From IMG/VR virus record IMGVR_UViG_3300045988_053841: a stretch of 41,047 bases of DNA; one strand, written 5' to 3'. Shown piece by piece: positions 272 through 40,189 of this stretch (its first letter is position 1; every line of letters begins with the position of its first letter). Position numbers and translations under genes: made by a program. Source of the DNA: a virus. The notes under the pieces were generated by a model. It was not told the origin of the DNA and searched no databases. It saw nothing but the letters and a program-made list of their open reading frames with translations.

Positions 272-304
272 GAGAAAAGAGCGCTGCCGCCAGCAGCGCT
301 CTTT
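272..304 (-). terminator. Rho-independent terminator downstream of the integrase
   Basis: Perfect stem AAAGAGCGCTGC / GCAGCGCTCTTT (276-287 / 293-304) with a 5-nt loop. On the minus strand it is followed by TTTTCTC. Confidence 0.7.
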
Positions 305-1619
305 AATTTGCGGCATACAGGCTTTCAAGCTTTTTGGCCGTGTCGGCCTCCATCTGCTGCGTAAGGTGCTGGTAGATGTTGAGGGTGGTTTTGATATCCT
401 TGTGACCGAGGCGCACCTGCACCGCCTTGGGAGGCACTCCGGCAAAGAGAAGCTCCGTGCAGTGCGTGTGCCGCAGCGAGTGATAGTCGAAGGAGGGACA
501 AATGGCATCCGGGGATCGAACGCGGGATACCTTGCCGTTCTTCTGCACATTCCGCCAGCCGTGGATCACACGGCAGCATTCCTGCATGGTACGCGGACGG
601 ATAAGGGAGCCGTCGTCATTGACGTTGATCATGTGGATCTCCGTGCCGATGCCATCGGTGTTGAGTGTAAATGGGGGGACATCGTCCGCGGAGCTGCGTG
701 CCGGGGTGACATATTGCCGTTGGAAATAGGGACCATAGGAGAGCTGCGCCTCCCGCTGGTGCTGCCGGGTACGTCGGAGCAGCGCCAGCGTTGCGCTGTC
801 CAGTTGGATGGTGCGGTAACTGTCGTACTTCGGGGGAGCGAAATACAGATCATCCGGAGAGCGCCTGCGTTCCTTCGGAGAGGTATCGCCGCCTCCGGGG
901 CGGTATTGGATCTGACGGTTGACAGACAAGGTGGCAGCGCCGAAGTCTACGTCCTCCCACTGCAGGGCGAAAGCTTCGCCGAGCCGGAGGCCGCAGCGGT
1001 AGCCGAGAACAAGCGGGATGTGCATGGGATGCCCCTCCGGGAAGCGCTCGAATATCCGGTGGATGGTATCGGCGTCCAGAACGTCCCGTTGCTTAGTGCG
1101 TGTCTTTAACATGGGCTGCGCTCCGCGCCGGGGGAGTTCGGCATCCGGCACGGGGCTATTCTGAATAAACTTCATCTTTTTGGCATACTTCATGGACTTG
1201 CTGAGGATGCCCTTTACACCCGCGATGGTGTTGCGGCTGTATCCGCGGTTGAACAGGTCGTCGATGAGCGCCTGCACAGAGGCGGTCTGGAGCGCAGATA
1301 TGGGGTATTTGCCGATGGCGGGGACGATATGGTTCTTTATCTTCTTGCGGTAGTTGGTGAGGGTGGTATCTTTGAAGTTGAAAACACCGTAATTATCCAG
1401 CCAGTAGTTGAGGAAATCGGCCACGCTCATTTGGGACGGAGTGAACTTTAGACCGGAGTTCCGGTATTCCTGCCAGGCTGTCATGCCGGCGGCGTATGCC
1501 TCGCCGGCGGTATCGAAGCCGCCGCGGGAGATCCACTGCCGCTTGCCGCCGACGGACGCGGACTCGAAGCGGTATTCGTATTTCTTGCCTCGCCGGCGGG
1601 TAAGCACTTTACTGCCCAT
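303..1619 (-). CDS. int: Tyrosine recombinase / phage integrase
   Basis: ATG at 1619 is preceded by GGGAGGTG. The C-terminus carries HSLRHTHCT (HxxR) and LGHKDIKTTLNIY (catalytic Tyr). The track ORF extension to 1787 has no RBS and overlaps the next gene. Confidence 0.93.
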   Translation of the reverse strand: MGSKVLTRRRGKKYEYRFESASVGGKRQWISRGGFDTAGEAYAAGMTAWQEYRNSGLKFTPSQMSVADFLNYWLDNYGVFNFKDTTLTNYRKKIKNHIVPAIGKYPISALQTASVQALIDDLFNRGYSRNTIAGVKGILSKSMKYAKKMKFIQNSPVPDAELPRRGAQPMLKTRTKQRDVLDADTIHRIFERFPEGHPMHIPLVLGYRCGLRLGEAFALQWEDVDFGAATLSVNRQIQYRPGGGDTSPKERRRSPDDLYFAPPKYDSYRTIQLDSATLALLRRTRQHQREAQLSYGPYFQRQYVTPARSSADDVPPFTLNTDGIGTEIHMINVNDDGSLIRPRTMQECCRVIHGWRNVQKNGKVSRVRSPDAICPSFDYHSLRHTHCTELLFAGVPPKAVQVRLGHKDIKTTLNIYQHLTQQMEADTAKKLESLYAAN

Positions 1620-2232
1620 CTTTGTCACCTCCCGGCTCGTGACCGATGAAAACGGTGTGGGATCGCTTCGTATACCGGGAGGACATACGAAGCAGACAGT
1701 GGCCCATGACGCAGGCGGCCGCGATGACCAGAAGCAGAATAAACCACGCGGCAAGCGAGATGTTGCCGCCGATGATAAGTCCCGCATTTGGGAGACGAAA
1801 GTCCCAAATTAGATACCAGACTACAGCAAAGAACATAAGCGAACAGACAGTGATAAGCGAATAGGTACGCCGCGTCAGTTCGGAGCGGAGAGCATCGTTG
1901 CTATCCCGCAGACTGCGGATCTCGCCATTGCGCTCCGCCAGTTCCAGCTCAAGGGCACGGATCCGCTGCTCCAGCTCCGCGCGCTGGCGCTCCGCCTCCG
2001 GCCTGACTGCGCCGAACATCTCATCGATGGACAGATCCAGCACGCGGGCCAACGCCGCCGCCTGCACGATGGTAACGCCGCCGTTGCCGCTTTGTGCGTT
2101 GCGGACGGTGGAGTATGGGACGCCGGAGCGCTCGGATAATTTTTCGTTGGTGAGGCCGAAGCGGGAACGTGCCATGCGGAATGCTTTGGGGTATGCACGG
2201 ATGTATGGGGATAACTCGTCAATAACGGACAT
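1609..2232 (-). CDS. Membrane-anchored XRE-family HTH protein (HTH, coiled coil, two TM helices)
   Basis: ATG at 2232 is preceded by AAGGAGG. N-terminal HTH (LTNEKLSERSGVPYSTVRNAQSG), a central E/R/A/L-rich heptad-like stretch, and hydrophobic helices LITVCSLMFFAVVWYLIW and ISLAAWFILLLVIAAACVMG. Confidence 0.75.
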   Translation of the reverse strand: MSVIDELSPYIRAYPKAFRMARSRFGLTNEKLSERSGVPYSTVRNAQSGNGGVTIVQAAALARVLDLSIDEMFGAVRPEAERQRAELEQRIRALELELAERNGEIRSLRDSNDALRSELTRRTYSLITVCSLMFFAVVWYLIWDFRLPNAGLIIGGNISLAAWFILLLVIAAACVMGHCLLRMSSRYTKRSHTVFIGHEPGGDKDGQ

Positions 2233-4001: not shown

Positions 4002-4658
4002 ATGAAACATGAGACTTTGACCATTTGGAGCGCGGAGGACTTTGCCCGCCCGGAGAAGCTGGCGGCGCTGCGCGTGGGCGACGAGGTCGCCTTCCAACTC
4101 AAGAACGGCAAAGATGCCGCCTTTGTGGTGGCGGACATCGCCGATGGCGTCCTTACCGGCTGCCTTTTTAAGGGCGTGCGGGACATGGCCATGTACGACG
4201 GCCGCCGCTGGTGGAACACCGACTATGTGAACTATCCGGAGAGCGACGCCAGAGAGCGCCTCAACGAGGAGCTCCTGCCCCTGCTGCCGGACGAGCTGGG
4301 GGCACTGTTGGTGGAGCGCACCATCGTCCAGACGGTGGACGGCGTGGCGTACAGCTGCACGGACAAGCTGTGGCCCCTGTCTGCGGTGGAGGTGTTCGGT
4401 GAGGACGCGCCGGACTGGATGCGGCGGGACGATACGCCGGACAAGCCCCTGCCGTCTTTTGCCGAGGACCAGGCCAACCGGAAAGCGTACCTGTGGTATG
4501 CCTGGCTGCGCTCGCCGTATGCCAGCAACAGCAGCTATTTCTGCAGTGTGTACACGTCGGGCGCCGCGGACTACTACATTGCCAGCCTTTCGCTTGGCGT
4601 CGCCCCCGGCTTTCGCATCGGCATCAAGGCCAAGACGGCGGAGCCGGCGCAGGACTGA
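4002..4658 (+). CDS. DGR variable protein 2 (remote target), DUF6273-like / C-type-lectin-fold-like C-terminus
   Basis: ATG at 4002 is preceded by AGGAGG. The C-terminus AWLRSPYASNSSYFCSVYTSGAADYYIASLSLGVAPGF is encoded by VR2, which matches the TR at 29064-29188 except at TR adenines. Confidence 0.85.
   Translation: MKHETLTIWSAEDFARPEKLAALRVGDEVAFQLKNGKDAAFVVADIADGVLTGCLFKGVRDMAMYDGRRWWNTDYVNYPESDARERLNEELLPLLPDELGALLVERTIVQTVDGVAYSCTDKLWPLSAVEVFGEDAPDWMRRDDTPDKPLPSFAEDQANRKAYLWYAWLRSPYASNSSYFCSVYTSGAADYYIASLSLGVAPGFRIGIKAKTAEPAQD
4498..4615 (+). repeat. DGR variable repeat VR2
   Basis: Codon-by-codon comparison with the TR. TR AAT/AAC codons appear here as TAT, AAC, AGC, TAT, AGT, TAC, GAC, TAC, TAC, ATT and CTT. 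Non-adenine positions are identical, including the GGCGTCGCCCCCGG tract. Confidence 0.85.
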
Positions 4659-4668
4659 TCGAAAAGGC

Positions 4669-4693
4669 TATCCCCCGGCGCAAGCCGGGGATA
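4669..4693 (+). other. GC-rich hairpin with a GCAA loop downstream of VR2 (DGR target-recognition-type element)
   Basis: CCCCGGC (4673-4679), loop GCAA, GCCGGGG (4684-4690). It lies inside a 45-nt block (4658-4702) that is 40/45 identical to 28454-28498 downstream of VR1. Confidence 0.6.
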
Positions 4694-15015: not shown

Positions 15016-15151
15016 GCGAAAACCGAGAAAATGTGAATTATTTGGGCTTTGATATAGCCGCCCTGGCGGGCTGAAGGACTGCGCTCATGCGTGGTGTACT
15101 GACGTAGGCAGGTCGGGGCGGCGATATGAGTGTCTGACTACCTTATACATA

Positions 15152-25622: not shown

Positions 25623-27419
25623 ATGGGACTGAGCGATTTCAAGATCACGGATGCCGACATTACCAGTAAAGGCGTACAGGCATCCCCGGACCAACTCAGC
25701 GGCACGGCTGAGGACAACAAAAAGGTCTTTGACCGGCTCACCTCCGGGCCGGTGAGAGACGGGCACAACAAGCTCATCGACGCGCTGGTCGCGCTGGGCG
25801 TAGAGCAGCTGATCCAGTACGGCAGCGAGAACATCAAGTACATCCGGCTGAATGCGGACGAGCACATCGAGGTATCCTCGGACGGCGCGACATGGACGGA
25901 GGTGGCCTCGTCCGGGCACCTGATCTACGACGCGGCGGGGCAGCAGATGCCGCAGCGGAGCCGGCTGAAGTTCGGCGGGGCCAGTGTGGTGACGGACGAC
26001 GGCACCTACACCATCGTATCCGGCGTGAAGGGCGACAAGGGCGCTACCGGCGCGAAGGGCGACAAGGGCGAGAAGGGCGACACCGGCGACCAGGGACCGC
26101 AGGGCGCGGCATGGTATCCGGCGGTGGACGGCCTGGGCAACCTGACGTTCGTGCTGAGCGAGACGGCCACGCCGCCGCCCGCCTACAACATCCGCGGCCC
26201 CCAAGGCCCCCAGGGCGTACAGGGTTTGCAGGGCGCCACAGGCGCAACAGGCCCGCAGGGTATCCAGGGCCCCCGCGGTTTGCAGGGCGCCAAGGGCGAG
26301 AAGGGCGCCACCGGCGCCACAGGTGCCACCGGACCTGCCGGTCCCGCCGGCGCACAGGGCGCACAGGGCATACAGGGCCCCCAGGGCGAGACCGGCCCGC
26401 AGGGTGCGACCGGTGCCACCGGTCCTGCCGGTCCTACCGGGCCGCAGGGCCAGAAGGGCGATCCCGGCGAGGACGGCAAGTCCTTCACCGTTCAGGACAT
26501 TTACCCGACGCTGGCGGCGCTGAAGCAAGCGTTCCCCACCGGCAACGAGTACGCCTACCAGGTGACGGCGGAGGACGATGAGATCTTTATATGGTCTGAG
26601 CTGGCCACGGACTGGGTGAGCCTCGGCAAGCTGCAGGGCCCGCAGGGCCCACAGGGCCCCACCGGCGCCACCGGCGCACAGGGCCCCAAGGGAGACACCG
26701 GCCCACAGGGGCCGCAGGGCGTGCAGGGTATCCAGGGCGAAAAGGGCGAGCAGGGCGCTACCGGCGCGACGGGCCCCACCGGCCCTACCGGCCCGGAGGG
26801 ACCGGAAGGTCCCCAGGGCCCCCAGGGCGAGACAGGCCCGCAGGGCGAGCAGGGCATCCAGGGCCCGCAGGGCGAGGCGGGCGAGAGTGCCTACACCGCC
26901 GCCAGCAAGGGCGGCTACGCCGGCACGGAGACGCAGTTCAACAACGACCTGGCCAAGATCGGGAACAAGGCGGACAAGATGGTGCCCGCAGCGGCGGGCA
27001 ACCTGGCCGCGCTGGACGCGGCGGGCAATCTGTCCGACAGCGGCAAGAAGGTGGGCGACTTCCAGACCAAGGTGACGGCCAGCGGCCTGCTGAAGGGCGA
27101 CGGAAATGGCGGCGTGACCGCGGCGGCGGCAGGCACGGACTACTCCGGCCCCAAGGTCACGGTGACGGCCACGCTGCTGGCGTCCGGCTGGACGGGCAGC
27201 GAGGCGCCCTTTGTGTACACGCTGGCCATCGCCGGTGTGACGGCCACCAGCTACCAGGAGCTGCTGCCGGCGGTGAACATCACGGCGGAGCAGCTGAAGG
27301 CATTGCAGGCGGCCAACATCACGGACGGCGGACAGGCGGCGGGCAGCATGACGCTGAAGGCCTACGGCAAGGTGCCCACCGTGGACATTCCCATCCGTGT
27401 GATCAAGGAGGGAGAGTAA
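25623..27419 (+). CDS. Collagen-like triple-helix-repeat tail fibre protein
   Basis: Three uninterrupted Gly-X-Y runs of about 28, 93 and 84 aa. Confidence 0.8.
26022..26105 (+). repeat. Gly-X-Y collagen-like repeat segment 1
   Basis: [28 protein letters not shown]. Confidence 0.85.
26196..26474 (+). repeat. Gly-X-Y collagen-like repeat segment 2 (about 31 triplets)
   Basis: [28 protein letters not shown]...GQKGDPGED. Confidence 0.85.
26637..26888 (+). repeat. Gly-X-Y collagen-like repeat segment 3 (about 28 triplets)
   Basis: [22 protein letters not shown]...[12 protein letters not shown]. Confidence 0.85.
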
Positions 27420-27423
27420 AGAA

Positions 27424-28437
27424 ATGCCTACTATCATTCGATTTGGCGGCGGCGCCGGGGACGGCGCGCAGAAGCTGCTGGTGAACGTGGACAGCGGCGC
27501 CGTGGTGACAGCCAAGAAGGGCAGCTACGCAGTGAGTGCCGTAAGCGAGAACGGCCAGGCGGTGCTGGAGCTGGACGAGGCGGGCACCTACACGGTGAGC
27601 GCCAGCAAGGACGGCACCACCACGCCGGACGTGAAGACGGCCACGGTGCCGCAGGAGCTTACCCTCAGCTTCGTGGCGGCGGAGCTGAACACCAACAGCT
27701 GGGAGATGATCAAGGCGGTATCGGACGCCGGGCAGGGGGCCAACTACTGGTCCGTGGGAGACACGAAGGACGTGACGCTCTCCGGCACCTGGCAGAGCCT
27801 CAACGTGTCCAATGTGACCGTCAAGGCGTTCATCATAGGCTTTGACCACAACAGCGCCGTGGAGGGTGAGCACCGCATCCACTTCCTTATGGGCAAGATC
27901 GGCACCGCCATGGTGGCCTTCTGCGACAGCCAGTACGGCAACCAGACCAGCGGCGCGTACTTCACCATGAACACCGCGAACACCAACTCCGGCGGCTGGG
28001 AGGCCTCCCGAATGCGGAAGACGGTGCTGGGCAATAGCAACACACCGGACGTGCCCCTGGAGGGCAGCCTTATAGCGGTGCTGCCGGAGGAGCTGCGGGC
28101 GGTGATGAAGCCGGTGACGAAGTGGACGCAGAACAGCGCGATAGCAGCGACTGCCACCACGGACTACGCGTTCCTCATGGCGGAGTTTGAAATATTCGGC
28201 AAGCGGACGTATGCCTACACCACCGAGCAAGATAAGCAGGCGCAGTACAACTACTTCAAGGCAGGCAACCCCAGGGTGTTCTACAAGCACTCGGCGACCA
28301 CCACGGCGGTCATTGCCTGGCTGCGCTCGCCGTATGCCAGCTACAGCTACTATTTCTGCAGTGTGACCGCGTCGGGCGCCGCGTACTACTCCAATGCCAG
28401 CATTTCGCTTGGCGTCGCCCCCGGCTTTTGCGCGTGA
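27424..28437 (+). CDS. DGR variable protein 1 (receptor-binding candidate), DUF6273-like / C-type-lectin-fold-like C-terminus
   Basis: The C-terminus AWLRSPYASYSYYFCSVTASGAAYYSNASISLGVAPGFCA is encoded by VR1. It lies at the end of the fibre module and directly upstream of the Avd-like gene, TR and RT. Confidence 0.88.
   Translation: MPTIIRFGGGAGDGAQKLLVNVDSGAVVTAKKGSYAVSAVSENGQAVLELDEAGTYTVSASKDGTTTPDVKTATVPQELTLSFVAAELNTNSWEMIKAVSDAGQGANYWSVGDTKDVTLSGTWQSLNVSNVTVKAFIIGFDHNSAVEGEHRIHFLMGKIGTAMVAFCDSQYGNQTSGAYFTMNTANTNSGGWEASRMRKTVLGNSNTPDVPLEGSLIAVLPEELRAVMKPVTKWTQNSAIAATATTDYAFLMAEFEIFGKRTYAYTTEQDKQAQYNYFKAGNPRVFYKHSATTTAVIAWLRSPYASYSYYFCSVTASGAAYYSNASISLGVAPGFCA
28305..28428 (+). repeat. 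DGR variable repeat VR1
   Basis: Matches the TR except at TR adenines. TR AAT/AAC/ACG codons appear as TAT, TAC, TAC, TAT, AGT, ACC, GCG, TAC, TAC, TCC, AAT and ATT. Confidence 0.88.
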
Positions 28438-28466
28438 TCGGGCGAAGCCCGGCATCGGAAAGACTA

Positions 28467-28489
28467 TCCCCCGGCGGAAGCCGGGGGGA
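28467..28489 (+). other. GC-rich hairpin with a GGAA loop downstream of VR1
   Basis: CCCCCGGC (28468-28475), loop GGAA, GCCGGGGG (28480-28487). It lies within the conserved 45-nt block 28454-28498. Confidence 0.6.
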
Positions 28490-28509
28490 CGAAAGGAGAA
28501 GGATCCGAA

Positions 28510-29013
28510 ATGAGCGTACCGACCTATAAGAGGCAGAAGCCGGATCCGAACAACCCGCGGGATCCGGAGTTCGTGCTGCTGAGCAAGAAGCTGTATGTGG
28601 AGGTCATCGACCTGCTCTCGTGCATGAGCGCACGGTACGGCCGCCTGATCGCCGTACCGACGGCGGAGCTGGCCGGGGAGGTGCAGGACTACGCCGTGAA
28701 GGCCAACGACGTGTTCCCCAGCGACGGGCAGAAGCTGGCGCTGCGGCGGGAGTACCTGCTGCGCTGCCACGCTGCGGCCAAGGCGCTGGGCGAGCGGATG
28801 GACAAGGTACATGAGGTGCTGCGGTCCAACCCGGAGGGCGCCTTCCGCAACGGCAAGGGTGTGACACTGGGCGCGGAGGCGGCGCTGAAGAAGCTGCACC
28901 GGATGGAAACGGACGTAGGTGCCGACTGCGTGGCGCTGCGTAAGAAGCTGGAGGCGGTGGCCGACAGCGACAAGCGCCGGTATATGGCACAGGAAAAGAA
29001 AAGGAAGTCATAA
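28510..29013 (+). CDS. avd: Accessory variability determinant (Avd)-like protein
   Basis: 167-aa basic, predicted helical protein in the canonical slot between the VR and the TR. The call rests mainly on position. Confidence 0.6.
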   Translation: MSVPTYKRQKPDPNNPRDPEFVLLSKKLYVEVIDLLSCMSARYGRLIAVPTAELAGEVQDYAVKANDVFPSDGQKLALRREYLLRCHAAAKALGERMDKVHEVLRSNPEGAFRNGKGVTLGAEAALKKLHRMETDVGADCVALRKKLEAVADSDKRRYMAQEKKRKS

Positions 29014-29063
29014 GAGTATGGGTGTGTCTCTGAATAAGTGCCCGGTCGTGTTGAGGGCGGGAG

Positions 29064-29188
29064 GCGGTCAATGCCTGGCTGCGCTCGCCGAATGCCAGCA
29101 ACAGCAACAATTTCTGCAATGTGAACACGTCGGGCGCCGCGAACAACAACAATGCCAGCAATTCGCTTGGCGTCGCCCCCGGATTTCG
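29064..29188 (+). repeat. DGR template repeat (TR)
   Basis: About 125 bp, homologous to VR1 and VR2. It carries 11 AAY codons (reading NASNSNNFCNVNTSGAANNNNASNS) at exactly the positions where the VRs differ. It is non-coding (not part of any supported gene) and lies upstream of the RT. Confidence 0.88.
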
Positions 29189-29315
29189 TGCCCCCTCTAC
29201 GCTTGGAGGGTGAGCAGGTCGAACAGCAACAGGACCTTGCGCGAAAGGAGAGGCACTTCCCGCGACGGCGCACGCCGTCCAAAACCGTCTTCCGCACCGC
29301 TGCACGGACGCTTGC

Positions 29316-29340
29316 CGGAACGCCAAGGAACGGCGTTCCG
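29316..29340 (+). other. Perfect 9-bp hairpin in the TR-RT spacer (candidate DGR RNA structural element)
   Basis: CGGAACGCC (29316-29324), 7-nt loop, GGCGTTCCG (29332-29340). Confidence 0.4.
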
Positions 29341-29466
29341 ACACACCCGCCGGGGCTATGGCGGGCGCTTGCATGGCGGAGAATGTGCCTACCTCCGTTT
29401 CATGTGCCGCGGGAGAGCAGAGAACACGCCGGGCGGCACGGCCCGACGCTGCCGGGAGACTACCAC

Positions 29467-30588
29467 ATGACAAGCGCGGAGCGCCGGGAGGGGCGCTATC
29501 AACGACGGAAGGCACGGCGGCAGGAGCGCAGGCAGCGGCGCATGGCGGCGCTGGGCACGATAGAGGACATCGCCCGGTTCGACCGGATGTACCAATGCGG
29601 AAAGGACTGCTGCCGGGGCGTGCGGTGGAAAACCAGCATACAGGCCTTCGAGGCGGAGCTGTTTCTACGGACGGCGCAGAGCTGCCGCCTGGTGGAAAGC
29701 GGTGCGTGGCACCCGCAGCGGAAGCCGGTACACTTCACCGTGATGGAGCGTGGCAAGGTACGGCCTATCGACGCGCCCCACGTGGACGACAGGCAGGTGC
29801 AGAAGGTACACAGCCGGTTTGTCCTCGCGCCGTGCTACGGCCCCGCCATGATCTACGACAACGGGGCCAGCCAACAGGGCAGGGGCCTGGAGTTCGCCTA
29901 CCGGCGGCTGAAAAGGGCACTGATGCGGCACTACCGCCGCTATGGCCGGGAGGGCAGCGTGATCCTGTGCGACCTCAAGGAGTTCTTTCCCTCGGCGCCG
30001 CGAGAGGCACTGCTGGACCGCCACCGGCGGTATATGCCGGAGGGGCCCATCCGGGCACTGGCGGACGAGATGGTGCTGACGGCGCCGGAGACAGAGCCGG
30101 GCCGGGGTATGCCGCTGGGCATGGAGCAGAGCCAGCAGGAGATGGTGGCTCTGCCATCGGCGGTGGATAACTGGCTGCGGTGCCAGATGCACCTGGAGGC
30201 ACAGCACTACATGGACGACTATGTGATCCTGGTGCCGCCGGGCGTGGACGCGGCGGCGGTGCTGGAGGCGTTCATCGCACGGTGCGAGGCGCTGGGGCTG
30301 CGGGTAAACCGCAGGAAGTGCCGCTATGCACCGCTGCGGCGGCCCTTCCGCTACTGCAAGACGAAGTTCCATGTGACGGAGTCCGGGCGGGTGGTGACGC
30401 ACCGCACCGGGGACGCACAGAGGCGCTGCCGGCGGAAAATGCGCCTGCTGGCCGCCAGGGGCGACTGGGAGGGCGTAAGGGCGCAGATCGTGAGCGCCAA
30501 GGGCTACTACAAGAGACACAACGACAACGGACGTTTGACAGCGCTGCGGGCGCTGCACAGCGCACTGCGAAAGGAGAGGGCAGCATGA
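29467..30588 (+). CDS. DGR reverse transcriptase
   Basis: YMDDYVI catalytic box, LGMEQSQ (the DGR-type LGxxxSQ motif), and a basic N-terminus. It lies immediately downstream of the TR. ATG 29467 is taken as the start; the track ORF extension spans the TR. Confidence 0.88.
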   Translation: MTSAERREGRYQRRKARRQERRQRRMAALGTIEDIARFDRMYQCGKDCCRGVRWKTSIQAFEAELFLRTAQSCRLVESGAWHPQRKPVHFTVMERGKVRPIDAPHVDDRQVQKVHSRFVLAPCYGPAMIYDNGASQQGRGLEFAYRRLKRALMRHYRRYGREGSVILCDLKEFFPSAPREALLDRHRRYMPEGPIRALADEMVLTAPETEPGRGMPLGMEQSQQEMVALPSAVDNWLRCQMHLEAQHYMDDYVILVPPGVDAAAVLEAFIARCEALGLRVNRRKCRYAPLRRPFRYCKTKFHVTESGRVVTHRTGDAQRRCRRKMRLLAARGDWEGVRAQIVSAKGYYKRHNDNGRLTALRALHSALRKERAA

Positions 30589-30986
30589 GGTATGTATGTC
30601 ACAGACGTGCGCGGTTCGAGGGTATATCCGGCAGGGTGAACATCCCCTACGGCGCCGCGCTGGAGAGGCGGGGCGACTTCCTGTACTACCAGGGACGGCA
30701 GCTCTGCGCGGCCGGGAGCCAGCGGGCCCATGAGCATTTCAAGCGGGACGACGATGGGCAGGGCCTGCGGCGTGGGGCGCTGACGGAGGCCATCTGCAAA
30801 ACGCTGGAGCGCCGGGACGCCGGGCACCAGGACCGATGGGACCGGGTGTGGGCGGACAAGCTGTGCGGGAAGTACCGGCACCCGGACCACGAGGACCACT
30901 TCCTGTGGGGCAACGCCTTCTTCGCGGCGCCCATCGCAGATCTGAACTACATCGCCGCGCTGGTGGGCGCGGGAAAGGAGCGTTAG
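30585..30986 (+). CDS. Hypothetical protein (133 aa)
   Basis: ATGA overlap with the RT stop codon. Confidence 0.5.
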   Translation: MRYVCHRRARFEGISGRVNIPYGAALERRGDFLYYQGRQLCAAGSQRAHEHFKRDDDGQGLRRGALTEAICKTLERRDAGHQDRWDRVWADKLCGKYRHPDHEDHFLWGNAFFAAPIADLNYIAALVGAGKER

Positions 30987-34309: not shown

Positions 34310-37300
34310 ATGGCTAAGAAGTCTATGGCTATGACCATCACCGAAAATAAGACCAAGCAGAGCAAGGCAGGGGCGCGCAGTGCGTCCCTGCCATCTGCGC
34401 TTCCTGCGCTGCAGATGCCGAAGCTGAAGACTCCGGCAAAGACATCGGGGACGCAAATGCCCGTGCTGGGGAAAACCACGTCCAAGGGCATTGGCATCGC
34501 GCAGTCCGTGGCGAACGGATCCGGCACACAGAGTAGCGGGAGAACCACGGCACCGAAGGTGAAGACCGTGAAGCCGGCGCAGCAGTCGGCGACAGACCGG
34601 GCGGCGAACGTTCGCGCATTCGGAGCGGGCGACTACTCCGGCGGCGGGGAGCTGCTGGAAAAAGCGTACAAGACCGCACGCGCCGCAGTAAAGGGCATCG
34701 GCTCCTCCTACGCCAACATCGGCGGCAGCGCCGTGGAGGGCATGGGCAACCTGCAGGAGATCATGCAGCGGGGCGAGTACGACAAAAAGGTACAGCAGAT
34801 GAAGGACAACAAGGCCTTCTATGAGCAGGCCCTGAAAACCGGCGTCAACCCCCGCACCGGCAAGAGGCTGACGGTGGACCAGAAAAGCCGGTACTACAAG
34901 ATACTCAACACGCAGTACACCGACGGCAAGATCGCCCAGATGGAGAATGTCTACAAGGAGGCTACGGCGAACCAAAAGGCCCGGACGATGGAGGCCGCCA
35001 ACGCCGCCTTCGCCGCTTCGGACCGCCTGAAGGCCAGCGCCGACAAGGACGTGGCCGCCGCCAAGGAGGGCAGCGGCAAGGCGGGGCAATTCCTTGTGGA
35101 TCTGGGCTACACCGGCACGCAGCTCCTGGCCGACCTGGCGGCGAACGCCATCGCACCGGGCGCGGGCATGGTATCCATGGCCAGCCGTGTATACGGCGAC
35201 GCCTCCGCAGAGGCCCGGCGGGAGGGTAAGACAGCCGGGCAGCAGGCGCTTTCCGGCCTGAAGGGCGCCACAATCGAGGTGCTGACGGAAAAGCTGTTCG
35301 GCGGTCTCGCCAAGGCCTACGGCGCCGGTACGGCGGACGAACTTGTGGAAAAAGTGGCCGACAAGCTGACCAAGACAGAAGCAGGCCAGCGGGCCGCTGT
35401 GTGGCTCATCAACTCCGGCGGTGAAGGCCTTGAAGAAGTCGTTTCCGACGTGTTGAACCCGCTGGCGGACCGGGCGCTGGGGCTGGACGACGGCACCGGG
35501 GCCATCTTCACAACGGACGACGCGGCGCAGATGGCCTATGATTTCCTGCTGGGCGGCACTATGGGGCTTATCGGCAGCAGCGGTCAGCTGCGGAGAGGTC
35601 GGACGGTGCAGATGCCGACGCTGGAGCGCACGCAGGATACCAGCACGGCGGAAATGCCGCAGTTTGCCACGGAACCGGCGGCACAGGACGCGCAGACGGC
35701 ACCGGTCGTAAACTTTGACGCCGAAACGCAGAACGCCGCAGAGAGGCTTACAGAGCCGAATACGGCGGCGGGGAAAATCACCATGCCGCGGGTGACGGAC
35801 GCCGCGGGGAATACATACGCCCAGCGGCAGGCGGCGGCGACGTTCAACGACGGCTCCAAGAGCGACGCAGAGGGCGTTCTTGGCCTGCTGCGGTCCAATA
35901 TCCCTGCCCTTGAGGGCATAGAGCCGGTGGCCAATGTGACCGGCCAAGAGGTGGGGAAAACCGGCAGGGCCACAGACCGGGTGTATAACTTCTTCCAGAG
36001 CATCGGCGGGAAGGTGCGCCGCGAAGGCTTCGGTGACGTGCTGTTCTCCAAAAGCCGGGTGAGAAACAGCGTAGTCGGACACGGATCGGGAGAGGCAAAG
36101 ATCCAACTGGCGGCGGCCGTACCCGGCGTAATAGAAAACGGTGTGCAGATCAACTACACACCGAACTGGAAGGGGAGAGGGTACGACAGCTATGTGTTTG
36201 CCGCGCCTGTGACCTATGATGGGAAACAGACCTATGTGACAGCCATCGTGACAAAGGATGATGCGAACCGCTATTATCTGCATGAGGCGCTGGACGCGGA
36301 GGGGAATGTGCTTTATAAAAAAGCAGAGGGCTACGACGCCGCCTCCGATAGGCCCACGGCAACACCGCAGGACACTATAGCTGACATCGAGCCCTCTGTT
36401 GATAGTATAACACAGACGGAGGGAGCTGTCAACGAGGTGGAAATGCCGGTGATGCAGGAGGCGGAGACTGCCGCAGAAGAAGCGGACGCTGCACAGACTG
36501 CGCGGCAGACGGTGGAGCAGATGGACGCGGAGTTTGACGCCATGGCGGAGGAGGCCCGCGCCAAACAGCGGCAACGTGAGGCCGAAGGCTACGAGATGCC
36601 GGAAACACTCCGGCGGCTGGGCGTGGATCCCTTCGGTTCCGAGGCGGACTACGCCGGGGCAGAAACGCTGGCGCGGGAGGCGCGGAACAACAATTCCGCC
36701 CGGAAGCAGATGCAGAAGCAGATCAGCAAGATGGCGTTTACGGAGAAGGAGCGTACCTTTGCCCGACAGCTTGCCAATGACAAGATCACATGGCAGGACG
36801 TACCGCCCACGATGGACATGGACCGGCTGGCCACGCTGACCGACTTCTACCGCGCAATGGACAATGATCCGGCGGCGGGGCTGCTGAGCAGACGGCGCGA
36901 CACCATCCTGGAACGGGAAACGGCCAAGATGGAGCCTTTGCTGGGCATGGACGTCACCTATGACGAGGGCGGCATGACGGACAGCGGGAAGCGCAGCGGA
37001 AAGATCGCTAAGAAGTTCAGCACACTGCGCCGGAATTTGCAGACACCGGCTCGCGTATGCGAAACAGAGTGGGGCACGGAGCATGGCCGGAAGGTCTACG
37101 ATGAGCTTTTCTACCCGGTGACGGAGAACAATGGGCGGCAGATCACATGGGTGAATTCCATGCTGGACAGGGTGCGGACCTTCACGGACGGCACCGGCAA
37201 GAAACGGGCGCTGAACCGCAAGGAGCGTGAGCTGGTGCAGAAGCTGGTGGAGTACAGCGCCTCGCAGGACCGAGTAGCCAAGTTCTCCAAGCAGTACGCT

Positions 37301-40189
37301 CCGGCGGTGGAAAATGTGCGGAACGGCGCGGGCGTAGAGGACTCCGCCAAGGAGTTCGGCATCGACAAGTCCTCGCAGGAGTACGCGGACCTGCTGAACT
37401 ACAAGACCTATCTGACCGCCGTGGAGGAACTGACGGCCAGCACAGAGGCCGACGGCACAGCGGTACAGGCCGCCGTGAAGGCATACGGCGACATCTACAA
37501 GGAGCTGTACGAGGGCATCAACACGTTCCTCGTGGCCCACGGATACCAGCCCATCGGCTTTATCGAGGGGTACGCGCCTCATCTCCAACCGGAAAGCGAG
37601 AGGACGGCATTCTCCAAGGCCCTTAAAATGCTGGGGCTGGACGACGCTGCCATGGAGCTGCCTACGTCCATCTCCGGCCAGACAGCGGACCTGAAGCCGT
37701 ACAAGCAGTACAATCCCTTCTTCCAGGAACGCCGGGGAGACAAGACGGAATATGACATTGCCAAGGGCTTTGAAAACTACGTCTACTACCTTGGAAACAT
37801 TTTCTATCACACGGACGACATCATGCGTATCCGTGCAGCGGAGAGGTACATCCGAAAGACCTACAGCAGCGAAGAAGCCAATGAGATGATCACACAGGCC
37901 GAGGATGCACGGAATTTCTCGGACGCCGACATCGAGGAGTTCCTGCGGATGAACGGCCTTGTGGGAAAGAACACAACGCTGGACGAGGGCGATGCCCGCA
38001 TACTGCTCAACGACTACATCGACAAGCTGTATGATCAGATCGGCAACGTGACGCGCTACAGCGAGATGGCGAAGTACCTGGACAACTACGCCAACCGGCT
38101 GGCGGGCAAGCAGAACTATGTAGACCGCGGCGCGGAGGCCGCTACCGGGCGAGGATCGCTGAACTGGATCAATACACTGTCCGGGAAATACGGCGGAGCC
38201 AAGCTGGCGTTTAACGTTTCGTCGGCTATCAATCAGACATCGCAGCTCCCGATGGTGGCTGTGGAAAACGGCGAGAAGTACACGGCGGCAGCCATGCGCG
38301 ACTTCTTCAAGAAGGACAGGAGCAGCTTCGTGAATGAAAGCAACTTCTTGAAGGGCAAGAAGGGTGTAAACTGGCTGCTGGGCGCGGAAACCGGCTGGGA
38401 GAAGTTCAAGCAGGCCGGATTTTCCATGACGGAGGCCGTGGACAGCTTCACAGCCTACACGGCGGTACGCAGTAAGTACCTCAAAGAGACCGCGGCGGGC
38501 AAGAGCCATGCGGAGGCTATCAAGCTGGCGGACGACTACGGCCGCCGCGTGATGGGCTCAAGAGCGCGGGGCGAGAAGCCGGTACTGTTCGACACGAAAA
38601 ACCCCTTCTGGCAGATCGCGACACGGTTCCAGCTCGAAACGCTGAACAGCTGGGAGCACGTCAGCCGCGACCTGCCCAACGAGTTCCGGAAAATGGCGGG
38701 GGAGAAGGGCAAGACTTACGCCGCCCGCGTCATGGGCGGCAGAGCCGCGAAGTACGTCCTGTATGCGTTCCTGGCTAACCTCGCCGTGGGCGAACTGTCC
38801 GGCGGATCGCCGGTGCCCTTCGACCTGCTGGGCAATACCATGGAGGCACTGGGCAAGGCGTGGGGGCTGACCAAGAGCCAGACCGTGGCCACACTGCTGG
38901 ACAGTGTGCTGCAAGCCGTGTTCGATGAACGGCTGTTCGGCACGCCGGAGCCGGAGGACGACGATGACGCCGACTGGTGGGCCGCGCTTGAAAGCCTGTT
39001 CGGCAACGTGGCCAACGATGTGCCGGTAGTCAGCCGGGCCGCGGCGCTGGCCGGCGTGGGAGATCAGACGCTGGCGGTGGCAGACCTGTCCAAGATCGCA
39101 GACCTTGCGAAGTCTGTAAAGGACAAGGGGCTTACATCTGCTGACACGCTGGACAAGGCAGCCACGGCGGGCGGCGAGTTCCTGTACGGCGGCAACCAGC
39201 TCCGCAAGACGATACAGGGCACCATGGACGTGCTACGCGGCGGCAGGTACAATAACGGAAAGCTGCGCTACCAGGTAGATCAGACGCCGTGGAACTACTT
39301 TAAGGGGGCTGTCTTCGGCCGCAGTTCGCTGGACGAGGCGCAGGACTACTATGCGGAGAGGAGCAGCGACTTCTCCGCGAAGCAGACGGAGACCTTCGGA
39401 AACCTGCAGAGCGCCGGTGTGGCCGCCAAGGAGAGTTATGACCTCATCCAGGACCTGCGTGGCATCGAAAAGACCGATGACGAGAGCAAGGCCGAGATGC
39501 AGCGCGAGGCATTGATGTCTTCCGACATCAGCGGAGAGGGGAAGGCGGCGGCTTATTACGGCCTGCTGGCCACCGACAAGGAGAAGGCCGCCATGGACGC
39601 CATAGGCGATGCGGAACCGACGGCGGACATGGGAGAGGTGACGGGCCTGCTGGTGCGCTTTAAGTCGTGCAAGAACGACACAGAGAAGCTGGCGGCGCTG
39701 CAGGACAGCGGATTGACGCTTTCACAGAAAACATCCATCTATACCAACCTCATCGCCAGCGAGGAGGCGCTGAAAGAACAGAGCGACCTTGAGGCCTATG
39801 ACGGCATCACGGCGGAGAAATACTACCAGTACAAGACCGCCGTTACCGGATTGACGGGAAAAGCTGCGAAGATGGCCGCTATCAATGCCCTTGACCTGCT
39901 GAGCGAGGAGAAGGACGCACTCTATTTTGCCAACGGCTGGGCGGAAAGCAAGCTGAACGAAGCACCGTGGCGCTCCGGATACAGCTACGTTGAGATGCCA
40001 GTATTGGGGAGTAGCGGGGCAACGATGCCCATACTTGGCCGGAAACGTACCTCTGAACTGGAGATGCCAGTGCTCAGCAAGGCGGCGTATAGCAATGTGG
40101 AAATGCCGGTACTGGGAAGCCGTGGAAGCTCCGGCGTACAGATGCCTGTGCTGGGCGGCGGTACGGTGAAAATGCCGGTGCTGAAATGA
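34310..40189 (+). CDS. Giant (1959 aa) virion-associated protein: tape-measure-like, internal-ejection-like or polyvalent-protein-like
   Basis: A single uninterrupted ORF with a good RBS (CAGGAGGG). Long helical regions and MPVL-type motifs at both ends. It lies downstream of the lysis cassette. I did not recognise a catalytic domain by eye. Confidence 0.6.
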   Translation: MAKKSMAMTITENKTKQSKAGARSASLPSALPALQMPKLKTPAKTSGTQMPVLGKTTSKGIGIAQSVANGSGTQSSGRTTAPKVKTVKPAQQSATDRAANVRAFGAGDYSGGGELLEKAYKTARAAVKGIGSSYANIGGSAVEGMGNLQEIMQRGEYDKKVQQMKDNKAFYEQALKTGVNPRTGKRLTVDQKSRYYKILNTQYTDGKIAQMENVYKEATANQKARTMEAANAAFAASDRLKASADKDVAAAKEGSGKAGQFLVDLGYTGTQLLADLAANAIAPGAGMVSMASRVYGDASAEARREGKTAGQQALSGLKGATIEVLTEKLFGGLAKAYGAGTADELVEKVADKLTKTEAGQRAAVWLINSGGEGLEEVVSDVLNPLADRALGLDDGTGAIFTTDDAAQMAYDFLLGGTMGLIGSSGQLRRGRTVQMPTLERTQDTSTAEMPQFATEPAAQDAQTAPVVNFDAETQNAAERLTEPNTAAGKITMPRVTDAAGNTYAQRQAAATFNDGSKSDAEGVLGLLRSNIPALEGIEPVANVTGQEVGKTGRATDRVYNFFQSIGGKVRREGFGDVLFSKSRVRNSVVGHGSGEAKIQLAAAVPGVIENGVQINYTPNWKGRGYDSYVFAAPVTYDGKQTYVTAIVTKDDANRYYLHEALDAEGNVLYKKAEGYDAASDRPTATPQDTIADIEPSVDSITQTEGAVNEVEMPVMQEAETAAEEADAAQTARQTVEQMDAEFDAMAEEARAKQRQREAEGYEMPETLRRLGVDPFGSEADYAGAETLAREARNNNSARKQMQKQISKMAFTEKERTFARQLANDKITWQDVPPTMDMDRLATLTDFYRAMDNDPAAGLLSRRRDTILERETAKMEPLLGMDVTYDEGGMTDSGKRSGKIAKKFSTLRRNLQTPARVCETEWGTEHGRKVYDELFYPVTENNGRQITWVNSMLDRVRTFTDGTGKKRALNRKERELVQKLVEYSASQDRVAKFSKQYAPAVENVRNGAGVEDSAKEFGIDKSSQEYADLLNYKTYLTAVEELTASTEADGTAVQAAVKAYGDIYKELYEGINTFLVAHGYQPIGFIEGYAPHLQPESERTAFSKALKMLGLDDAAMELPTSISGQTADLKPYKQYNPFFQERRGDKTEYDIAKGFENYVYYLGNIFYHTDDIMRIRAAERYIRKTYSSEEANEMITQAEDARNFSDADIEEFLRMNGLVGKNTTLDEGDARILLNDYIDKLYDQIGNVTRYSEMAKYLDNYANRLAGKQNYVDRGAEAATGRGSLNWINTLSGKYGGAKLAFNVSSAINQTSQLPMVAVENGEKYTAAAMRDFFKKDRSSFVNESNFLKGKKGVNWLLGAETGWEKFKQAGFSMTEAVDSFTAYTAVRSKYLKETAAGKSHAEAIKLADDYGRRVMGSRARGEKPVLFDTKNPFWQIATRFQLETLNSWEHVSRDLPNEFRKMAGEKGKTYAARVMGGRAAKYVLYAFLANLAVGELSGGSPVPFDLLGNTMEALGKAWGLTKSQTVATLLDSVLQAVFDERLFGTPEPEDDDDADWWAALESLFGNVANDVPVVSRAAALAGVGDQTLAVADLSKIADLAKSVKDKGLTSADTLDKAATAGGEFLYGGNQLRKTIQGTMDVLRGGRYNNGKLRYQVDQTPWNYFKGAVFGRSSLDEAQDYYAERSSDFSAKQTETFGNLQSAGVAAKESYDLIQDLRGIEKTDDESKAEMQREALMSSDISGEGKAAAYYGLLATDKEKAAMDAIGDAEPTADMGEVTGLLVRFKSCKNDTEKLAALQDSGLTLSQKTSIYTNLIASEEALKEQSDLEAYDGITAEKYYQYKTAVTGLTGKAAKMAAINALDLLSEEKDALYFANGWAESKLNEAPWRSGYSYVEMPVLGSSGATMPILGRKRTSELEMPVLSKAAYSNVEMPVLGSRGSSGVQMPVLGGGTVKMPVLK
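39992..40186 (+). repeat. Six tandem peptide repeats ending in (E/T/Q/K)-M-P-(V/I)-L-(G/S/K) at the C-terminus of the giant protein
   Basis: ATG codons at 39995, 40025, 40064, 40103, 40142 and 40172. The Pro and Leu codons differ between copies (cca/ccc/cca/ccg/cct/ccg and ttg/ctt/ctc/ctg/ctg/ctg), so conservation is at the peptide level rather than the DNA level. Confidence 0.85.

Follow-up and report, generated by a model that had tools for sequence, protein, structure and literature searches.

The IMG/VR virus record IMGVR_UViG_3300045988_053841 (41,047 nucleotides (nt); the whole stretch that was analysed is referred to as the window) carries, between positions 27424 and 30588, a cassette that had been read in an original prediction, made from the sequence alone, as a complete diversity-generating retroelement (DGR), i.e. 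a target gene, an accessory gene, a template repeat (TR) and the gene for a reverse transcriptase (RT), arranged as in the DGR of Bordetella phage BPP-1. This layout is borne out by the gene order, by the RT and by the adenine-only differences between the TR and the variable repeat (VR) at the end of the target gene. The cassette contains the following features:

27424..28437, plus strand: target gene 1, encoding 337 amino acids (aa), with an N-terminal beta-sandwich (residues ~16-75) and a C-terminal DUF6273 domain (Pfam match to residues 188-336)
28305..28433, plus strand: VR1, the last ~43 codons of target gene 1; the adenine-only part is 28305-28428
28411..28424, plus strand: the GC-rich tract GGCGTCGCCCCCGG at the 3' end of VR1, resembling an initiation of mutagenic homing (IMH) sequence; identical in the TR (29169-29182) and in VR2 (4596-4609)
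28468..28487, plus strand: hairpin 3' of VR1, with an 8-bp all-GC stem and the loop GGAA, 35 nt past the end of VR/TR homology
28510..29013, plus strand: accessory gene in the avd position, encoding a four-helix bundle of 167 aa with an isoelectric point (pI) of 9.5
29063..29191, plus strand: TR, non-coding; the 124 nt that align with VR1 include 29 adenines
29214..29480, plus strand: RT-2 RNA (Rfam RF03077), a full-length match (55 bits against a gathering threshold of 40, E 4.5e-10) that ends at the RT start codon
29467..30588, plus strand: DGR RT of 373 aa with the motifs YMDD and LGMEQSQ

A repeat search of the window recovered VR1 and the TR as a gapless pair of 129 nt (28305-28433 and 29063-29191; 88% identity, offset 758), so that the gene at 27424..28437 does end in a copy of the TR as predicted. 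The TR coordinates given in that prediction were 1-2 bases off, as 28305 pairs with 29063 (not 29064) and 28428 with 29186 (not 29188). When the mismatches were typed base by base across 28305-28428, they fell at 14 of the 29 TR adenines and at none of the 95 other positions (Fisher p=7e-11), which agrees with the earlier claim that all mismatches lie on TR adenines and that the remaining positions are identical. In the reading frame of VR1, 28 of the 29 TR adenines and 13 of the 14 mismatches are at codon position 1 or 2; the TR contains 12 AAY codons, and adenine substitution cannot create a stop codon. The earliest non-adenine mismatches (28429 and 28431) lie just past the GGCGTCGCCCCCGG tract, and the homology decays from there. 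Exact copies of this 14-nt tract are present at three sites in the window, against a chance expectation of 0.14, and the base right after it is an A in the TR (29183) and a C in all of the VR1 and VR2 alleles seen.

The third of these sites belongs to a further copy of the repeat at ~4490-4615, which was located in the window by using the conserved repeat ends as queries, and which lies in a second target gene:

4020..4658, plus strand: target gene 2, encoding 212 aa (pI 4.6), essentially a lone DUF6273 domain
4498..4615, plus strand: VR2, which unlike VR1 is followed by 14 further codons in its open reading frame (ORF)
4673..4690, plus strand: hairpin 3' of VR2, with a 7-bp all-GC stem and the loop GCAA, 57 nt past the end of the homology

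Aligned to the TR at an offset of 24573, VR2 has mismatches at 12 of 28 TR adenines and at none of 90 other positions (p=3.6e-9). Target gene 2 lies at the window's left end, 24.5 kb away from the TR, amid an integrase gene (303-1787, minus strand) and genes for regulators of the helix-turn-helix type. Its homologs in 14 IMG/VR contigs are 82-92% identical, and by inspection only it has no recognisable N-terminal signal sequence. The second target and both hairpins are additions to what had been predicted for this genome.

Both target proteins match the Pfam family DUF6273 (PF19789; gathering threshold 23.5 bits): target 1 with 36.8 bits (E 4.6e-9), which upholds the domain assignment predicted for it, and target 2 with 51.2 bits (E 1.7e-13). 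Target 1 also matches phrog_37900 (E 8e-101). AlphaFold2 (AF2) modelling of target 1 from a 2-sequence alignment gave an overall pLDDT (predicted local distance difference test) of 35, with residues ~16-75 at 73-83. A profile of the target domain found no match in the PDB, and hhalign of this domain against BPP-1 Mtd was negative. Target gene 1 lies within the structural module; its product is presumed to be located in the virion, and both targets are presumed to bind ligands.

The RT contains both of the motifs that had been reported at 29467-30588, YMDD and LGxxxSQ. DGR-type RTs carry LGxxxSQ where retroviral RTs have QGxxxSP, and the LGMEQSQ of the window aligned with IGSLTSQ of bRT, the RT of BPP-1. 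The protein matches RVT_1 (E 2.5e-12) and phrog_1423. When the RT, the accessory protein and target 1 were each compared with the PDB as single sequences, nothing useful emerged, and bRT was reached by the RT profile alone: a profile of 20 family members matched bRT (8ub7_A) with an E-value of 1.1e-14, the group II/retron-type RTs following at 1e-4. The identity of these chains was taken from a PDB search with the BPP-1 proteins, in which 8ub7_A is bRT and 8ub7_B is Avd. With hhalign, the RT family and bRT aligned at 98.2% probability (E 3e-14, 24% identity). By these profile comparisons the RT is a homolog of bRT. The start codon at 29467 is backed by the family alignment, in which M1 and T2 are invariant. 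A longer ORF (29152-30588, plus strand) opens within the TR, crosses the RT-2 RNA and continues into the RT; 29152 was rejected as the start of the RT, since translation from there would span the end of the TR and the RT-2 RNA. In a relative, an ORF of this kind was called as a 515-aa protein in which the translated, Asn-rich TR gives a spurious DUF6273 match on an 'RT', i.e. such TR/RT read-through ORFs are an annotation trap for DGR surveys.

We scanned one genome per species for related loci and obtained 80, nearly all from Oscillospiraceae; the best, in Vescimonas sanitatis MH37-1, has an RT that is 97% identical. A TR no more than 700 nt upstream of the RT, with a VR further upstream, was present in 71 of the 80 loci, and about 70 share the order target, accessory gene, TR, RT-2 RNA, RT. 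The C-terminal target domain is common to the targets of 69 loci, while the parts N-terminal to it are anything from nearly absent to over 800 residues long. Across 64 distinct gapless TR/VR pairs from the clade, 845 of 871 mismatches (97%) were at TR adenines, i.e. 43.9% of the adenines were mismatched compared to 0.3-0.9% of the other bases, and the A in the TR and C in the VR just past the GC tract were seen in 62 of the 64 pairs.

Five of the prophages, namely the window and the loci L001-L003 and L081, are near-identical. Their TRs are the same save for one C/G site at 29174; their VR1 alleles show numerous differences from each other, nearly all in TR-adenine columns. For VR2, 11 related IMG/VR contigs could be compared, and 24 of 28 adenine columns varied versus 7 of 90 non-adenine columns. 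The prediction that polymorphism would be restricted to adenine positions thus holds between natural copies at both VRs, and the DGR is evidently active in nature, judging from the distinct VR1 and VR2 alleles that related prophages and contigs carry. The exceptional site is informative about the extent of transfer. The G variant at 29174 is present in the TRs of L001 and L081 and also in several VR1 and VR2 alleles (at 28416 and 4601), and L003 has the G at the equivalent position of VR1 and a C in its own TR. A variant common to the TR and the VRs is consistent with TR-to-VR transfer reaching into the GC tract. As 29174 is shared in this way while the A/C difference at 29183 is fixed, the boundary of transfer would lie between 29174 and 29183.

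An Rfam scan of the window found neither intron nor retron RNA; it found RT-2 instead, in the spacer that separates TR and RT. The window copy is divergent: its first hairpin is shortened, it has an insertion of 57 nt, and it scores 55 bits where more distant relatives reach 110-183. RT-2 RNA occupied the same spacer in all 16 relatives that were scanned (52.8 bits in the near-identical L001, 110-183 in the other 15). The motif was defined by a position directly upstream of RT genes, as it is here, and of the RT motifs described by Weinberg et al. (2017) RT-10 alone was tied to a DGR, a DGR role for the others being speculative (PMC5737381). In the 17 loci checked, including the window, RT-2 lies in the TR-RT spacer of an adenine-mutagenic DGR, so what that paper only speculated is seen directly: RT-2 RNA is the DGR spacer of this clade, which is new with this analysis and concerns a curated Rfam family whose function was previously unassigned.

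Within this spacer a short segment is complementary to the 3' end of the TR:

29184..29191, plus strand: TR side of the duplex, TTTCGTGC, directly 3' of the GC tract and equivalent to IMH*; pairs with 29241-29248
29241..29248, plus strand: spacer side of the duplex, GCGCGAAA, a conserved RT-2 segment whose 3' adenosine (29248) is ~57 nt past the TR end

We examined this 8-bp duplex in 37 distinct TR/spacer combinations. In the natural combinations 93.2% of the cells were paired, compared to 77.8% when partners were shuffled, and none of 500 shuffles reached 93.2%. Compensatory changes were seen in six of the eight pairs, e.g. UUUUACG/CGUAAAA, UUUCACAA/UUGUGAAA and UUCUGAA/UUCAGAA, and in slid registers the pairing fell to 27-54%. 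Because sequence anchors were used to extract the segments, a fixed register is favoured, a bias for which the shuffled partners and slid registers serve as controls. A priming duplex between TR and spacer, which is usually assumed, is therefore backed by compensatory changes in this clade. In BPP-1 the spacer RNA binds Avd, and a short duplex with the 3' end of the TR sets Sp A56 for priming at TR G117 (PMC7826257; bioRxiv 10.1101/2023.10.23.563531). By analogy with this pair of nucleotides, the adenosine at 29248 is the predicted cis-priming nucleotide of the window.

Past the homology with the TR, VR1 and VR2 have in common a downstream block of ~35 nt that holds the all-GC hairpin, and the VR2 hairpin was invariant in 11 of 11 related contigs. 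A hairpin target-recognition element has been experimentally defined in BPP-1 and is present in other phage DGRs, the rule for phage targets being a 7-10 bp GC stem with a 4-nt GRNA loop at 4-34 bp from the VR (Guo et al. 2011, PMC3240598). A GC-rich hairpin with a 4-nt G..A loop was found in 57 of 63 distinct VR-downstream regions of the clade compared to 13 of 355 random segments (3.7%). The loops were GGAA (20), GAAA (18) and GCAA (10), and the hairpins lay 26-40 nt past the end of the homology. By this analogy the hairpin 3' of VR1 is a candidate target-recognition element, and in the clade dozens of natural targets conform to the rule of Guo et al. Minimum-free-energy folding of the VR-downstream regions was uninformative overall (z -1.6 and -0.4), and it was the direct stem search that was informative. 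A reading of the hairpins as intrinsic terminators was rejected, as there is no plus-strand T-run after them.

The accessory protein had been called Avd-like on account of its position and its basic, helical character. These parts of the claim stand, i.e. the gene is in the avd position, the pI is 9.5 and AF2 predicted four helices with a pLDDT of 93.9, whereas its sequence gave no connection to Avd. An exhaustive HMMER search assembled an accessory family of 137 cluster representatives, with a pI of 8.8 +/- 0.9, and in 74 of the 80 loci the gene just upstream of the TR encodes a member of it. Of the six loci without one, four have less than 350 nt upstream of the RT; in the other two (L007 and L077) the flank was sufficient and held no match and no TR/VR pair. 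The protein sequence had no Pfam, NCBIfam or PDB match, and a 47-member profile found nothing in PDB or Pfam. All of the bAvd homologs carry the Pfam family bAvd (PF22296), which matched neither the accessory protein nor the 47 family members, and hhalign against bAvd gave 0.4% (profile-sequence) and 0.1% (profile-profile). By sequence, then, the protein does not fall within the Avd family, and a conserved accessory family unconnected to Avd by sequence methods is a further addition of this analysis. Fold comparison gave mixed results. When a viral library was searched with Foldseek, ranks 2, 3, 5, 7, 8 and 37 were annotated 'Avd-like' or 'bAvd-like' (E 3e-3 to 0.4, and 3e-3 to 0.09 for those among the top matches, probability 0.93-1.0, TM score 0.45-0.68 by target length), rank 1 being an uncharacterised phage protein. 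In the PDB the fold matches were generic helical bundles (E at least 0.08), the best compact match being 2gsc.

In four metagenomic clusters the N-terminus of the accessory protein is fused in frame to the C-terminus of the RT, with differing junctions. These fusions imply either recurrent deletions of ~1.1-1.4 kb, which would remove the TR, the RT-2 RNA and the N-terminus of the RT and leave the DGR dead, or assembly chimeras.

We are highly confident that the locus is an active DGR of a temperate phage integrated in an Oscillospiraceae (Vescimonas-like) genome, for which we propose the following mechanism. The accessory gene, the TR, the RT-2 spacer and the RT are probably co-transcribed from the late structural operon; that no promoter- or terminator-like signal interrupts the cassette is consistent with such transcription. 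The RNA over the TR and the RT-2 spacer would fold so that GCGCGAAA pairs with the 3' end of the TR, and the duplex would set the spacer adenosine (~29248) next to the GC-tract edge, where the first template bases lie. The RT and the basic four-helix accessory protein would then prime complementary DNA (cDNA) from this adenosine and copy toward the TR 5' end, with misincorporation opposite adenines. The cDNA would replace the homologous stretch of VR1, i.e. the C-terminus of the DUF6273 protein in the tail-gene region, and that of VR2, 24.5 kb away. The targets would be marked by the common GC tract, the fixed A/C difference just after it and the downstream GC-rich hairpin with its G..A tetraloop. 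The outcome would be up to ~1e17 protein variants of the presumed ligand-binding surface.

Several observations weigh against parts of this reading. The activity of the copy in this genome is deduced from differences between related copies, and a few differences between VR alleles are not at adenines (one C-to-G at 29174, and one T-to-G shared by two alleles). The cassette yielded no promoter-like site. The hairpins, at 35 and 57 nt, are at or beyond the 4-34 bp range of Guo et al., and the VR2 loop GCAA is GNNA, not GRNA. AF2 left the DUF6273 domain of the target without a usable fold model. To these can be added, for the accessory protein, the lack of detectable sequence similarity to Avd in the hhalign comparisons and the absence of bAvd (4dwl/8ub7_B) from its top 50 PDB fold matches.

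We weighed these points together with the other explanations of the locus. That the RT comes from another retroelement (a group II intron, a retron or a defence-associated RT) and that the repeat is an ordinary gene-end duplication is given virtually no credence. The RT does match the NCBIfam group II RT/maturase equivalog (TIGR04416), but weakly, with 42.9 bits against a cut-off of 300, and the generic RT and DRT models of PADLOC likewise reached at most 40 bits. Against this, among solved structures bRT is the closest relative, with an E-value ten orders of magnitude better than the next, the RNA next to the RT gene is RT-2, and an adenine-only pattern with p<1e-8 in two separate comparisons is incompatible with ordinary divergence. 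The group II/retron alternative named with the original prediction thus fails against the profile comparison. The cassette could also be the fossil of a genuine DGR, with old VR/TR differences and a copy that no longer diversifies. It is in keeping with this that activity is argued for this genome from related copies, and dead copies may exist elsewhere, as the in-frame fusions would suggest if they are not assembly chimeras. However, all of the parts are intact here (an open RT with YMDD, a full-length RT-2, the TR and both hairpins), and prophages whose RTs are 95-97% identical carry distinct VR1 alleles alongside an unchanged TR, a combination that requires recent activity in the lineage; VR2 likewise varies between contigs. 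We consider a fossil very unlikely. VR2 in particular might be a passive leftover of a gene-end duplication rather than part of a functional second target, as it lies 24.5 kb from the TR and outside the structural module, is trailed by extra codons and has a hairpin loop that deviates from the GRNA consensus. It is nevertheless extremely unlikely to be one: all 12 of its mismatches are at TR adenines, 24 of the 28 adenine columns differ among its natural alleles, with conserved flanks and hairpin, non-adjacent targets within one prophage are common (PMC5758913), and pairs of large and small DUF6273 targets are described for phages Lelie and CP11 (PMC11792537).

The position of the accessory protein is less settled. 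It is an Avd analogue and probably a very diverged homolog of Avd; the alternative, that it is unrelated to Avd and took over the same position and role, is the less likely of the two but a serious one. It draws on the failure of PF22296 to match any family member, on the hhalign values, on the generic nature of the PDB fold matches, on a length ~40 residues greater than that of bAvd, and on the annotation of homologs in deposited phage records as 'hypothetical protein'. Homology is favoured by the run of Avd-like matches in the viral fold library and by the Avd position, basic charge and four-helix topology; avd genes have also been described as 'very poorly conserved' (Wu et al. 2018, PMC5758913). 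Either way, the family, now annotated 'hypothetical', extends or replaces the Avd superfamily. A broader and doubtful suggestion joins two departures from the canonical system. The ribonucleoprotein of the clade may use non-canonical parts, i.e. an accessory protein unrelated to or unrecognisably diverged from Avd together with RT-2, having converged on the same cis-priming geometry; and the small, remote target 2 might act outside the virion, as a diversified phage protein with a role other than receptor binding.

The preferred reading, an active DGR with two targets, places the element close to known systems. It shares with the BPP-1 DGR (mtd-avd-TR-Sp-brt) the gene order, a homologous RT (hhalign 98%, 24% identity), adenine-specific differences between TR and VR, and a GC tract shared by VR and TR at their 3' ends, after which the IMH/IMH*-like sequences diverge. 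Both also have a GC-rich tetraloop hairpin 3' of the VR and a structured spacer RNA that forms a short duplex with the TR, ending in an adenosine ~56-57 nt into the spacer. It differs in that the accessory protein has no detectable sequence relation to bAvd, the target is a DUF6273 protein without sequence similarity to Mtd, the spacer is RT-2 rather than RT-10, there are two targets with one of them 24.5 kb away, and the hairpins are 35-57 nt from the VR compared to 4 nt in BPP-1. The host is also different, here a gut anaerobe of Gram-positive type.

The closest deposited phages are the Faecalibacterium phages Pioen, Taranis and Roos, with RTs 47-48% and accessory proteins 41% identical; a megablast of the cassette against deposited phages gave no nucleotide-level match. 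The DGRs of these phages are described as having DUF6273 targets with the VR at the C-terminus of the domain (PMC11792537; Cornuault et al. 2018), phages Lelie and CP11 as having a large and a small DUF6273 target (PMC11792537), and DGR activity as having been seen in two phages by read variation after induction (PMC11792537). The likeness of the window to Lelie and CP11 refers to the two DUF6273 targets, while the RT clade comparison covered Pioen, Taranis and Roos. The host genus here is another one (Vescimonas-like), and PMC11792537 does not discuss the accessory gene, the spacer RNA or the target hairpins ('Avd' and 'accessory' occur 0 times in it). Two DUF6273 targets per DGR are also found in the tentaclin phages nd4 and nd12, in which the small target, there too little more than the domain, has 234-294 aa compared to 212 here (PMC10743442). 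In tentaclins DUF6273 has been modelled as C-type-lectin-like, with the VR on a surface hairpin (PMC10743442). There the DUF6273 domain and VR are N-terminal and followed by Ig domains, whereas in the window the two VRs are C-terminal, and the N-terminal part of target 1 is instead a beta-sandwich. The element adds one member to a DGR group that has been published for Faecalibacterium phages of the gut. That it exists is not in itself news; it is valuable because it represents, with good annotation, a large and coherent clade, and it brings a host of the Vescimonas type to the phages in which a pair of DUF6273 proteins is diversified simultaneously.

Target gene 1 lies directly downstream of a gene with collagen repeats:

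25623-27419, plus strand: collagen-repeat gene, encoding 598 aa with long Gly-X-Y repeats (Pfam Collagen, E 1.7e-33)

From its position, the collagen-repeat protein is presumably a tail fibre that carries or neighbours the variable protein. Its Gly-X-Y repeats are the source of most of the direct-repeat families in the region.

On the other side of the cassette, an ORF at 30585-30986 (plus strand; 133 aa, basic with a pI of 9.2, phrog_29409, no Pfam match) shares bases with the stop codon of the RT gene (ATGA). In 76 of the 80 loci a homolog follows the RT, directly or past one small gene, and the ORF could be a further DGR-associated gene or mere conserved phage synteny. Further downstream, past the lysis genes, is an ORF of 1,959 aa (34310-40189, plus strand), the homolog of which in L081 carries the domains LPD3 and LPD38 of large polyvalent proteins. 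Two other RNA motifs were found in the window or in relatives. The DUF3800-VIII RNA of Rfam (RF03075), a motif class of unknown function (PMC5737381), occurs in the window at 15057-15122 (plus strand; 47.4 bits against a gathering threshold of 40.2). The same RNA is present in a Faecalibacterium prausnitzii locus (L050, 7548-7610; 68.4 bits) ~2.4 kb downstream of the DGR RT. An Acutalibacter prophage (L018, 8564-8652, minus strand) has a type II hammerhead ribozyme (40.9 bits against a gathering threshold of 37) ~3.4 kb downstream of its DGR RT.

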